Shown piece by piece: positions 447 through 56,775 of a stretch of DNA of 64,000 nucleotides. The DNA is taken from contig OZ024766.1 in the NCBI GenBank assembly GCA_964016885.1, positions 20,584,001-20,648,000 of the forward strand, read 5' to 3'. The position numbers and the translations under genes were made by a program. Every line of letters begins with the position of its first letter. The stretch's first letter is position 1. Source of the DNA: Eledone cirrhosa. Lineage: Eukaryota. The notes under the pieces were generated by a model. That model searched no databases. It was not told the DNA's origin and saw nothing but the letters and a program-made list of their open reading frames with translations.

Positions 447-3400
447 CTGAATAGACAGAAAAAATAAACATACAGGTGTGTGTATATATATATATATATA
501 TATACATATATATATAGTTATACTTTGGGAGGGTCATGTTGCCAATAAGAAACACACACACCAGTTGCTTTCACTTCAATTTATTATAATAAATTTATAA
601 ATTTCTGGTTGGTTGGTTGGTTCCACAACCAGATAGTTGTTTATACCTAGTCATAGTTCTTTCGTCACACACTCTGTGACCTCTTCAGAACAAAGAAAGG
701 AATCCCCAGTCACTGAAGAGGTCACAGAGTGTATGACGAAAGAACTATGACTATGTATAAACAACTATCTGGTTGTGGAACCAACCAACCAACCAGAAAT
801 TTATAGATTTATTCCTAAATTTATAAATTTATTATAATAAATTGAAGTGAAAGCAACTGGTGCGTGTGTTTCTTATTGGCAACATGACCCTCCCAAAGTA
901 TAACAATATCGGTTTCAACACACGCTTTCAGATAAAGAATCTTGCTAAACAAATTCAGAAACGAAATATATATATATATATATATATATATATATACACA
1001 TATATATATATGACTTTAATCTTTGTATGTAAATTACAAAGTATATATATATATTAGAAAGTGCGGCTTTTTTACAAAATGTAAAATAACCGAGGTGTCC
1101 TACACGAGTGGAAGTATAAAGAAAAAAAGATGAAATCGAAAATGCAACTGGAGTCTTATTTAAAAAAATATATATATTTATTTGGTTCCTTTACCGGTTT
1201 CGCAGTTCTTCTGCTTTTCAAAAGGTGAGTTGAGATGGAGGGTCTGTGGTTTTTCTCACATCTGAGAAAAACCACAGTGAGAAAAACCACAGACCCTCCA
1301 TCTCAACTCACCTTTTGAAAAGCAGAAGAACTGCGAAACCGGTAAAGGTACCAAATAAATATATATATTTTAAAAAAAAAAATAAGACTCCAGTTGCATT
1401 TTCGATTTCACCTCTTTTTCTTTATATATATATATATATATATATATATATACGTTATTCCGGGTTGAATCGGAGGTAACCACAGTAAGTAAGGCACTCA
1501 ATACATAGCAGAGTATAAAAGTTTTAATATAGATGAGATTCTACAGGACTAGAACTATCATTCTTTAGAATTCCTGATGATTTCTAAAGAATGAAACAGT
1601 TCTAGTCCTGTAGAATCTCATCTACATTAAGACTATATATATATATATATATATATATATATGACTTTAATCTTTGTATGTAAATTATATATATATATAT
1701 AACATGAAAAATTATATATATATATATATATATATATAAACGTTTGTATTTGTAAAGCCAAAACAATGCAGGTATGGACATAGAATATAAATGCAAATGC
1801 AAAAGATATTGTTGACAATTAGTCTTTTACCTTAAATTTATTTAAATATCCTTAATTTTCGAGATAATATCTCTTCTTCGGAGGGAAGTAAAGTGGTTAA
1901 ACCACCGTTCTAAATAGCTTGCCAAGTCATAAAAGAGTCTAACTGCGGCGTTCGAAGAAACCAGATGGTCAATAGATACACTCTGGTGATTAACCACGTG
2001 ATGGGATCCCCACCATGGGACCTTCACGTGCAAATCAGTTCAGTCCATTCTTTGGGACATTAAACATCCAGGTACGACCTAACTCTTCTGCACACACCAC
2101 TCCATCAATAAAATATTTGTTACGTTAATAACCATGGGTTGACATTACTCTCATACCAATAACTTGTGCAGCCGTTATCATGATAAACCAAATAATAATT
2201 GTTTCTACCATTGACACAAGGCCAGCAATTACCCAGTACATTACTGGTACTTTATTTTATCGACCCCGTAAGGATGAAAGGCAAAGTTAACCTCGACGGG
2301 ATTTGAACGAGATAAACCAAATAATAACGAGGGTTATTATAATAATTAATTGTTTCTACTTTAGGCACAAGGCCAGCAATTACCCAGTGCATTACTGGTA
2401 CTTTATTTTATCGACCCCGTAAGGATGAAAGGCAAAGTTAACCTCGGCGGGATTTGAACTCAGAATGGCAAGGGCCGTAACTCTATACGTCAAAGATTAA
2501 TGGTTTTACATCAAGTCAGAATACCACGTATCGTATATCCCGTTATTATTTGCTGCCCATGTCTCACTACCATGCAACATCGTGCTCCTCACACAGGCAT
2601 CATATAACCGGCCTTTCGTATTTGTTTAAGAGGGGCCTACTGACTGTAGGTTTCGCTTTGTGTGACCCCTTTATGAAATAAATCTGGTAAACTCTGCCCT
2701 TATGTGTTTCTGGTTGAAGGTACAACATAGAGCTGAAGAAGTTTAGAGAAATCTCAGTCACATCTGAGAAACTTCGACGTGAGAGATGGATTGAGGACAA
2801 AACTAAGATAATTAAGGTGAGTTCTACGCTTTGGGGGTTTCAGAGTGGGGGGGGGGGGGGGGGGTTCGGGGTTTCTGGGATTTCAGGGTGTCTTGCTCAT
2901 ATATATATATATATACACACATATATATACACACACACCTATATATATATATGCATACACATATATACACACATATATATATACACACACATATATACAC
3001 ACACACATATACACACCTATACACAGACACTCACATATACACACACACACACACCTACATATATACACACACATATATACACACCTATATATATACAAGA
3101 AACTTCGACGTGAGAGATGGATTGAGGACAAAACTAAGATAATTAAGGTGAGTTTCTGGGCTTTGGGGGTTTCAGAGTGGGGGGGGGGGTTTCGGGGTTT
3201 CGGGGGTGTCTTGCTCGTATATATATATATATATACACACATATATATACACACACACCTATATATATATATGCATACACATATATACACACATATACAC
3301 ACACACACACACCTATACACACACACACACATATACACACACACACACCTACATATATACACACAGACATATACACACACACACACACCTATATACACAC

Positions 3401-6400
3401 ACCTATACACACACACACACCTACATATATACACACACATATATACACACCTATATATACAAGAAACTTCAACGTGAGAGATGGATTGAGGACAAAACTA
3501 AGATAATTAAGGTGAGTTTCTGGGCTTTGGGGGTTTCAGAGTGTGTGTGTGGGGGGGGGGGGGTTCGGGGTTTCGGGGTTTCTAAGGCTTCTGGGGTTTC
3601 AGGGTGTCTTGCTCGTATATATATATACACACACACCTATATATATATATGCATACACATATATACACATATATATATACACACACACACATATACACAC
3701 CTATATATATACACACACATATATACACACCTATATATATATATGCATACACATATATACACACATATATATATTCACACACACACATATACACACCTAT
3801 ATATATACACACACATATATACACACCTATATATATATATATATATGCATACACACATATATATATACACACACATATATACACACCTATATATATATAT
3901 ATATGCATACACACATATATATATACACACACATATATACACACACACATATACACACCTATACACACACACACATATACACACACACACACACACACAC
4001 CTACATATATACACACACATATATACACACCTATATATACACACCTATATATACAAGAAACTTCAACGTGAGAGATGGATTGAGGACAAAACTAAGATAA
4101 TTAAGGTGAGTTTCTGGGCTTTGGGGGTTTCAGAGTGGGGGGGGGGGGTTCGGGGTTTCGGGGTGTCTTGCTCGTATATATATATACACACACATATATA
4201 CACACCTATATATATATATATATGCATACACATATATACACACATATATATATACACACACACACATATACACACCTATATATATACACACACATATATA
4301 TACACACACATATATACACACCTATATATATATATATATATATGCATACACACATATATATATACACACACATATATACACACACACATACACACACCTA
4401 CATATACACACACATATACACACACACACACACCTACATATATACACACACATATATACACACCTATATATACAAGAAACTTCGACGTGAGAGATGGATT
4501 GAGGACAAAACTAAAATAATTAAGGTGAGTTTCTGGGCTTTTGGGGTTTAGGGGTTGAAAAAAAGGTGTTTCTGTCTCAGGAAATTAGCTGAAAAAAAAA
4601 AAAAAAATGTCAAGAAATCTGAAGGGCTCACTCACCTGGTTTACTGGGGCTTTGGGTTTAAAATTCCGACAGGAGTTCTCAATGTTGGACAGAGAAGCTT
4701 TCGTCTGAGGTGTCATAGCTTGGGAAGTCTTGTTGTTGGCAATGTGGTTGAGAGTGTGCGGCGTGGTAGCAAGGCTGGTGGCCGACAGGGGGCGCTGGCT
4801 GTTGAGAGTGTGCGGCGTGGTAGCAGGACTGGTGGCCACCAGGGGGCGCTGGCTGTTGAGAGTGTGTGGTGTCGTAGCAAGGCTGGTGGCCGACAGGGGG
4901 CGCTGGCTGTTGACAGTGTGTGGCGTGGTAGCAAGGCTGGTGGCCGACAGGGGGCGCTGGCTGTTGAGAGTGTGTGGTGTGGTAGCTGGACTGGTGGCCA
5001 CCAGGTGGCGCTGGCTGTTGAGAGTGTGTGGTGTGGTAGCTGGACTGGTGGCCACCAGGTGGCGCTGGCTGTTGAGAGTGTGTGGTGTGGTAGCAGGACT
5101 GGTGGCCACCAGGGGGCGCTGGCTGTTGACATTGTGTGGTGTAGTGCACAGACTGGCCACCTGGGGGTGCTGGCTGTTGACATTGTGTGGTGTAGTGCAC
5201 AGACTGGCCACCTGGGGGTGCTGGCTGTTGACACTGTGTGGCATAGTACACGGACTGGCCACCTGGGGGTGCTGGGTGTTGACACTGTGTGGCGTAGTGC
5301 ACAGACTGGCCACCTGGGGGTGCTGGGTGTTGATACTGTGTGGCATAGTACACGGACTGGCCAACAGGTTGCGCTGATTATGGCTTCTGTGAACCGTAGT
5401 AGAGGAAGTGTTGGCCACCAGGGTGCGCTGACTACTGTCGCTGTCAACCATAGCACACGGACTGCTCACCAGGTGGCGCTGGGTGTTGTCGCTGCGAGCT
5501 GTAGTACCAGGACTGCTCACCAGGTGGCGCTGGGTGTTGTCGCTGCGAGCTGTAGTACCAGGACTGCTCACCAGGTGGCGCTGGGCGTTGTCGCTGCGAG
5601 GTGTAGTACCAGGACTGCTCACCAGGTGGCGTTGGGTGTTGTCGCTGCGAGGTGTCGTACCAGGACTGCTCACCAGGTGGCGCTGGGTGTTGTCGCTGCG
5701 AGCTGTAGTACCAGGACTGCTCACCAGGTGGCGCTGGGTGTTGTCGCTGCGAGCTGTAGTACCAGGACTGCTCACCAGGTGGCGCTGGGCGTTGTCGCTG
5801 CGAGGTGTAGTACCAGGACTGCTCACCAGGTGGCGTTGGGTGTTGTCGCTGCGAGGTGTAGTACAAGAACTACTCACTAGGTGGTGCTGGGTGTTGCCCG
5901 CGGTGTTCAGTATTGCGTCCATGCTAAACACAGCAGTTCTCTGGCTTTCAAAAAAGCTGCAATAGAAATATATATATATATGTACATATAAAACCTCCAT
6001 GGAACAAACTCCCTGCATCAGTTGTTAGCTGTCGAGACACTGCATCCTTTAAAACCTCCATGGAACAAACTCCCTGCATCAGTTGTTAGCTGTCGAGACA
6101 CAGCATCCTTTAAAACCTCCATGGAACAAACTCCCTGCATCAGTTGTTAGCTGTCGAGACACTGCATCCTTTAAAACCTCCATGGAACAAACTCCCTGCA
6201 TCAGTTGTTAGCTGTCGAGACACTGCATCCTTTAAAACCTCCATGGAACAAACTCCCTGCATCAGTTGTTAGCTGTCGAGACACAGCATCCTTTAAAACC
6301 TCCATGGAACAAACTCCCTGCATCAGTTGTTAGCTGTCGAGACACTGCATCCTTTAAAACCTCCATGGAACAAACTCCCTGCATCAGTTGTTAGCTGTCG

Positions 6401-56550: not shown

Positions 56551-56733
56551 AATATATATATTTATACTTTATAAATAAGAATCAAAGAGTGTTTAAGAAC
56601 ATTTAATTACTAACAATTGTTTCCTCCAGTCACAAGGCTGGGTTCACCAGAGTATAAATCAAAGGTAAAAAAGCACAGATAAACTTGTCAAAGAACATTC
56701 AGGGTATACACACTATAGAAATATATATAGTCT

Positions 56734-56775
56734 ATCAAAGTTCTTTCATCACACACTTGTGACATCGTCAGTGGT
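56734..56775 (-). ncRNA. Solo hammerhead motif related to family A
   Basis: ACCA-CUGACGA-U-GUCACAagugUGUGAU-GAAA-GAAC-UU/UGAU. Confidence 0.45.

Follow-up and report, generated by a model that had tools for sequence, protein, structure and literature searches.

What are the six inverted repeats that lie among (TA)n tracts in one part of the genome of the octopus Eledone cirrhosa, and why does each of them carry the whole or a part of a hammerhead ribozyme? The DNA analysed is a stretch of 64,000 nucleotides (GenBank assembly GCA_964016885.1, contig OZ024766.1, positions 20,584,001 to 20,648,000), which we call the window, and positions are counted from its first base. An earlier note, made from the sequence alone, had taken the repeats for non-autonomous retroelements that move as ready-made palindromes. 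We consider it highly likely that the six palindromes are instead dead-on-arrival stubs of hammerhead-bearing Penelope-like elements (PLEs), in each of which two short copies of the element end meet head to head within TA-rich target DNA. The kind of structure is already known; what we mainly add is five new octopod families of such PLE insertion products.

Self-BLAST of the window and alignments of the arms recovered all six inverted repeats of the earlier note, which we name P1 to P6 in order of position. The inverted-repeat spans (512-909, 1119-1422, 1520-1634, 35998-36113, 36220-36358 and 56175-56559) had E values between 1e-135 and 3e-32. The count of five sequence families also held: P1 and P6 are the sole matching pair among the six palindromes and form family A, and P2, P3, P4 and P5 represent families B, C, D and E, respectively. 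The arms are short, 55-225 nt each, and since the element copies are only of this length, the entire insertion is a hairpin. All six have a head-to-head geometry in which every motif reads outward from the centre (Table 1).

The hammerhead search that the earlier note had suggested as a check was made with two descriptors. The strict descriptor specified a minimal type-I hammerhead, and a second scan admitted the U3-A8 core variant and required a stem II of at least 3 bp. The strict scan returned three motifs (+713, +36292 and -56345) against none in 15 local shuffles, and the U3-A8-tolerant scan returned six (+713, +1315, -1221, +40870, -56345 and -56771) against none in eight shuffles, so that both scans exceed chance. 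The motif at +36292 was missed by the tolerant scan because its stem II has 2 bp; its helix III is palindromic. If a complete motif is defined by all core letters and a stem I of at least 4 bp, complete motifs are present in five of the 12 arms (P1R, P2L, P2R, P5R and P6L, with L and R for left and right), and hence in four of the six palindromes. Thus all six palindromes carry parts of a hammerhead, as had been claimed, and four carry a complete one. The claim that a hammerhead is presented on both strands holds in complete form for P2 alone (one of six). P1L and P5L begin at the first core base and therefore are without the 5' strand of stem I. The half motif of P4 consists of GAAA, a 6-bp helix III and a GUC triplet, and the "tiny helix III" of the earlier description fails for this palindrome. 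Across the loci, the hammerhead core lies 57-196 nt from the terminus, with its sense pointing toward the terminus. No hammerhead family was found among the 150 Rfam matches listed of 256; the top matches, hairpin microRNA (miRNA) models, were rejected, all being below the gathering score. Such stubs mimic miRNA hairpins or miniature inverted-repeat transposable elements (MITEs) in annotation tools.

The fold-back centre has a close relation to the ribozyme. Junction offsets from core base C3, with coordinates read by hand to within 1 nt, were 0, -27, -38, -52, +3, 0, 0, -6 and -34 nt in nine of the 12 arms; both P4 arms, whose centre is in the predicted loop II, and P6R, whose core is deleted, were left out. 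The nine measured arms thus start from 52 nt before to 3 nt after C3, three of them exactly at C3, which bears out the earlier claim that the centre often falls in the ribozyme core or a short way 5' of it. Over five loci from four families (P4 left out), arm length correlated with the ribozyme-to-terminus distance (r=0.97, 2 of 120 permutations). This correlation could reflect stalling of the reverse transcriptase (RT) at the ribozyme or an RNA 5' end located there.

At least one end of each palindrome is no more than 5 nt from a tract of at least four TA units, in agreement with the earlier note; as background, about 10% of window positions are within 15 nt of such a tract. Because TA tracts are common to P2 and P3 and to P4 and P5, the adjacency does not represent six independent events. 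The insertions lie inside (TA)n, which would mask any target-site duplication. One-sided tails were found at five of the six loci, with unique sequence of 62, 61, 72, 81 and 70 nt up to the next TA tract. The block of P2 and P3 is flanked by a 27-nt direct repeat (1010-1036 and 1661-1687), each copy of which stands behind a (TA)n tract and the first of which overlaps a 7-bp mini hairpin. The repeat may represent a long target duplication, or else one more stub of very small size.

Table 1. Palindromes, ribozyme motifs, tails and other features of the window
Feature	Position	Strand	Remarks
P1, head-to-head fold-back, family A	512..909		arms at 512-688 (left, minus sense) and 713-909 (right), spacer of 24 nt
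P2, fold-back, family B	1115..1426		two hammerheads of the U3-A8 variant (+1315, -1221), helix III palindromic; centre has a short tandem duplication
P3, fold-back, family C	1520..1634		core letters at +1574 without stem I; junction is first base of core
P4, perfect palindrome, family D	35998..36113		centre in predicted loop II; hammerhead 3' half only; CNOT3 intron
P5, fold-back, family E	36220..36358		complete motif at +36292; left arm begins at C3; CNOT3 intron
P6, fold-back, family A	56175..56559		complete motif at -56345; core of right arm deleted; no tail
P1 complete minimal type-I hammerhead	708..752	+	stem I 5 bp, core, stem II, 2-bp helix III, UA site
P1 tail	910..965	+	family reads stop mostly at 955
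P2 tail	1055..1114	-	about 61 nt up to next TA tract
P3 tail	1453..1519	-	
P4 tail	36111..36190	+	
P5 tail	36359..36427	+	
Putative start of parent-element reading frame, 28 codons	884..967	+	ATG at 884; spans terminus 1 (909) and tail
Solo hammerhead-like end	35845..35963	+	decayed, G12 lost (GAAA reads TAAA); extends to TA tract
Additional solo U3-A8 hammerhead-like motif	40866..40912	+	palindromic helix III; overlooked in the earlier note
Solo end with hammerhead core at -56771	56565..56780	-	core region about 85% like family A
CNOT3, host gene, coding exons	28993..53451	+	17 tblastn pieces

Family A could be followed beyond the window in four public sequencing runs, which were aligned to positions 686-966 at 80% likeness. 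The family is abundant in them, with matches in 9,201 contigs of run X1, in 158 contigs of run X5 (from another organism), and in 132,081 and 121,463 restriction-site-associated DNA (RAD) reads, and contig depths in these runs are not copy numbers. The family has two 3' termini 46 nt apart, one at 909 (terminus 1), followed by (TA)n, and the other at 955, behind a 46-nt tail. Loose ends behind 909 were (TA)n in 161 contigs of X1 and in 2,708 reads of run X22, and molecules terminating at 955 numbered 2,799 of 3,923 and 2,729 of 3,628. About 70,000 reads per RAD run extend upstream beyond the P1 fold-back point with a sequence like that of the P6 right arm; since RAD sampling favours upstream-extended copies, this shows that such copies exist in number and says nothing of their share. 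Variation was taken from 40 of 89 variant rows and from 15 of 46 joints listed. Among those rows, five fall within the ribozyme (708-752) and none in its core: position 729 is in loop II, 733 is a change in stem II private to P1, 743 is in loop III, 747 is the cleavage base, replaced by another allowed base, and 752 belongs to the outer pair of stem I. The 15 joints listed of 46 include five that switch strands, one of them at 705/710 (16 reads), at stem I.

The end of family A may also be the start of a gene. In the putative reading frame of 28 codons (Table 1), terminus 1 corresponds to codon 9, and the tail runs on to codon 24. Ten of the 14 listed variant positions in 884-958 are at the third codon position (binomial p=0.004), as are eight of 10 when the junction positions are removed (p=0.003), a pattern expected if the frame codes for protein and is under selection in the source elements. 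The P1 end probably opens a coding frame, and this indicates protein-coding source elements. Searches for the parent protein gave the following results. A word-index search with a 41-residue frame yielded two candidates, none at E≤10, and two metagenome pattern scans for the parent peptide gave no matches. HMMER with the 30-residue start gave two matches, both to multi-stretch repeat proteins that have neither an RT nor a GIY-YIG domain, and both were rejected. Pfam searches with 17 selected of the 229 non-tandem open reading frames (ORFs) of at least 45 amino acids in the window had no RT or GIY-YIG match.

Whether the palindrome is the mobile unit or a by-product of insertion can be judged from P1 and P6. 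The two arms of P1 differ by 2.3% (4 of 177 aligned bases) and differ from P6L by 9%. The informative sites group the arms by locus (three of three in the reliably aligned 3' part, one of them beside an indel), and at position 755 both P1 arms have G, against A in about 99% of the reads of the family. P1 and P6 have common 3' termini and unlike centres. Given the similarity of the arms within each locus and the different centres, the mirror half was likely produced at each insertion. The earlier note had proposed non-autonomous palindromic retroelements, which would mean that PLE proteins re-insert the transcript of a whole hairpin as one piece. That six palindromes, each with parts of a hammerhead, occur within 64 kb lends this some weight, as does the published finding (PMC3846280) that pLTR (pseudo-long terminal repeat) sequences are open to mobilisation in trans. 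The four families with a single copy in the window may still have fixed centres. Against a mobile hairpin stand the unlike centres of P1 and P6, the grouping of arms by locus, the reads that run upstream of the fold-back point and the third-position bias, which indicates coding sources; we regard it as quite unlikely. The other part of the earlier proposal, a Penelope-like derivation with a preference for TA, is in accord with the head-to-head geometry, the tails and the TA adjacency, all of which match known PLE insertions.

Two further explanations appear much less probable. The palindromes would have the look of DNA-transposon MITEs that had acquired ribozyme-like letters, with terminal inverted repeats beside TA and with TA target duplications that could not be distinguished inside (TA)n, and MITEs have been annotated in O. 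vulgaris (PMC13282606). However, fixed symmetric termini and a shared body were not found; the one-sided tails at five of six loci, the two family termini, the variable centres (those of P1 and P6 are unlike), the conserved ribozyme core and the coding frame across the end make membership among MITEs very improbable. Nor is it easy to believe that solo PLE ends became palindromic after insertion through fold-back repair at fragile TA tracts. Solo ends are indeed present in the window, and a hammerhead-free minisatellite (5989-6909) folds back too, but the arms of P1 and of P6 all end no more than about 5 nt from the element's terminus 1, and no flanking host DNA is mirrored, so that we give this explanation hardly any credit.

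Several observations weigh against our interpretation of the palindromes as PLE stubs. No two-sided, compensatory change in the stems was seen among the 40 of 89 variant rows listed, and core variants may exist outside these rows. About one third of the family A RAD molecules stop at 801 with mixed AT-rich flanks; these ends may belong to a subfamily of shorter copies or may arise where the 20-nt insertion of P1 breaks the alignment. The similarity of arms within a locus could also stem from gene conversion. The remaining four tails have no frame led by a start codon, and the peptide, metagenome and window-ORF searches linked no element with RT and GIY-YIG domains and the same termini, a check that the earlier note had also named, to any family. 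Assignment to PLEs would accordingly be based on non-coding anatomy and on a 28-codon signature in one of five families. The tails measure 46 nt in the family and 61-81 nt at the loci, and they exceed the 30-40 bp reported for PLEs.

Even so, the palindromes appear to resemble the insertion unit of endonuclease-containing (EN+) PLEs in five of six non-coding or anatomical comparisons. Arkhipova et al. (2013, PMC3846280) and Craig et al. (2021, PMC8557442) have described PLE insertions in which a 5'-truncated copy is inverted head to head and a tail may be present at one end. Here, a hammerhead lies near the 3' end in the pLTR, an inverted 5'-truncated head-to-head copy is present in all six palindromes, a tail is present at one end of five loci, and the pLTR includes a putative ORF start, evident in family A only. 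Shared with the EN+ PLEs of these reports are the inverted copy, the tail at one end, the first ORF codons in the pLTR and the bias for microsatellites that masks the target-site duplication; unlike the published insertions, the whole insertion here is a hairpin of very short copies. The codon counts of family A at terminus 1 and at the tail end are near those of the Pen2a_Av pLTR, which has 12 codons, or 22 with the tail (PMC3846280). For metazoan PLEs, Cervera and de la Pena (2014, PMC4209133) have described hammerheads of the U3-A8 variant as well as pairs of motifs that lie on opposite strands at a distance of 100-700 bp. The motifs of the window are like these minimal hammerheads in being of type I, with a short stem I, an extra base before stem II and a tiny or palindromic helix III; they differ in the full 6-bp helix III of P4 and in the non-palindromic loop III of family A, and no octopus set of such hammerheads turned up among the literature listed. 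The TA bias would fit Neptune-type elements as characterised in PMC8557442, as a lead only. The Naiad clade, described in the same report as without a canonical hammerhead, with an N-terminal endonuclease and with cephalopod members long inactive, was rejected since complete hammerheads are present in the palindromes. Non-LTR retrozymes (bioRxiv 10.64898/2026.07.22.740005) are likewise PLE-derived, with a type I hammerhead and non-coding copies, but they form head-to-tail tandem arrays, whereas the palindromes here are single head-to-head pairs; retrozyme membership was rejected, as no zero-mismatch hammerhead match falls in a tandem array of the window. We found no paper on octopus hammerhead palindromes, although paywalled papers, Repbase and Dfam entries, and supplements (such as the PMC8557442 family files and the PMC13282606 repeat library) may already hold these families.

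The biochemistry of a related element suggests how the stubs might be made. The protein of the Poseidon element PAc of Anolis cuts and extends both strands of AT-rich DNA, has two RT start sites and uses an uncleaved RNA template (Frangieh et al. 2024, PMC11167929). As in PAc, two RT start sites in the ORF start would account for the tail, and the target is AT-rich; the PAc ORF starts inside the ribozyme, whereas in family A about 135 nt separate the cleavage site from the putative ORF start downstream of it. By extension from that work, a PLE protein would cut AT-rich DNA on both strands, and reverse transcription would begin at one of two internal RNA sites, giving either terminus 1 or the longer, tailed terminus at 955. 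Copying would then halt at or slightly past the hammerhead, either because its helices stall RT or because the RNA 5' end lies there. The second arm might arise when the cDNA snaps back on short complementarity, for which P1 offers CAG/CTG at its junction and P4 its own stem II. Alternatively, synthesis might be primed a second time, from the other strand of the target, and the two cDNAs would anneal at the centre; the data fit snap-back and double priming equally. The formation of the inverted pLTR is left unresolved in the available text of PMC3846280 and PMC8557442, and with stubs this short, and from many families, the rule that governs the junction can be measured.

Folding indicates that the ribozymes are probably silent in the host. 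The predicted hairpin energies are about -74 to -315 kcal/mol, and the predicted probability that the core is unpaired is 0.0 in P1, P2 and P5, as is the predicted probability of stem I in P6. All complete motifs are thus predicted to lie within the hairpin, as expected from the earlier statement that the ribozyme is buried in long double-stranded RNA (dsRNA). Whichever strand is transcribed, the antisense arm would emerge first, and the ribozyme would fold into the hairpin and stay silent. Since this order is set by the geometry, cleavage of host pre-mRNA is unlikely. The two motifs of one palindrome are on opposite strands, which would make a dimer in cis impossible.

The hairpins may matter more as dsRNA. 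Octopus has been reported to have unusually high amounts of near-perfect dsRNA together with hyper-editing, and the available part of that report names a palindromic repeat source for frog and none for octopus (PMC5625713). With a measure modelled on the same report, in which a tile is counted when it has a near-perfect inverted partner within 2 kb, 115 of the 2,558 tiles of the window were positive: 51 in simple repeats, 24 in the six palindromes and 40 in other repeats. The six palindromes therefore make up 24 of the 64 positive tiles outside simple repeats, and PLE stubs are a candidate source of octopus near-perfect dsRNA. The palindromic Harbinger repeat of Xenopus is an ADAR substrate (Porath et al. 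2017, PMC5625713). Like it, the stubs are self-folding and need no neighbour to form dsRNA; unlike this DNA transposon with a palindromic consensus, the palindrome here was likely made at each insertion. As a speculation, which we think has a minor chance of being right, the hammerhead itself would set the fold-back point, its helices both stalling RT and pairing for head-to-head joining. Every ribozyme-bearing PLE family would then mass-produce near-perfect hairpins of a family-specific length, and in octopods these would be a main unrecognised source of near-perfect dsRNA and of adenosine-to-inosine hyper-editing. In favour of this are the correlation of arm length with ribozyme position, the three arms that begin at C3, the loop II centre of P4 and the palindromes' 24 of 64 tiles.

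The window is repeat-rich, with 33,378 of its 64,000 bases in tandem repeats. It includes the gene CNOT3, for one exon of which an Octopus sinensis protein was the best of 76 matches (94% identity). P4, P5 and the solo end at 35845 are all within one CNOT3 intron of 1.85 kb (35247-37092, between exons 35127-35246 and 37093-37203). The CNOT3 stop is at about 53450, followed by three AATAAA sites at 55155-55253, and P6 is located downstream of these sites, about 2.7 kb beyond the stop. On the minus strand, an exon-like ORF (3-445) has a splice-acceptor-like site at about 445, and P1 lies about 70 nt upstream of this site. The ORF ends in an IQ-like motif without a Pfam match, and a search of 1,640 candidates for the minus-strand gene beside P1 gave none at E≤0.01. 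The description of the motifs as intronic is therefore correct for P4, P5 and the solo end at 35845, plausible for P1-P3, and not shown for P6 and the solo motif at 56734, which are past the stop.

The solo motifs named in the earlier note fared differently. The one at 56734 keeps its core, with a 2-bp stem I, and the one at 35845 is decayed and taken alone is not above chance: it appears only in a one-mismatch scan, which gave 10 matches, against a shuffle mean of 6.4 and a maximum of 10. The one-mismatch matches at 1881, 25314, 35845 and 42425 were rejected as hammerheads since they are within the shuffle range. The region 1740-1881 (minus strand), with one core mismatch, a 5-bp stem II and a distance of about 140 nt from a TA tract, is probably a decayed solo end and is on its own within the range of chance. 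The additional solo motif passes straight into about 100 copies of a 9-nt unit (40866-41778, within a CNOT3 intron), and this unit resembles the bases immediately after the cleavage site of the motif.

A minus-strand ORF of 87 codons at 28685-28945 had no Pfam match; its product resembles the C-terminal end of a LINE protein. Two inverted structures without a hammerhead indicate that not all fold-backs of the window carry a ribozyme. The minisatellite at 5989-6909, without a hammerhead match, has 13.5 copies of a 61-nt unit with an inverted copy at about 6813-6891 and adjoins a TA tract. The MITE-like structure at 55394-56161, to which P6 is adjacent, has terminal inverted repeats of about 160 bp that enclose a tandem array of 49/50-nt units, and a small hairpin lies in the centre. 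Units of 48-50 nt related to this array form further arrays at 10050, 12525, 14636, 44005, 45595 and 46984.

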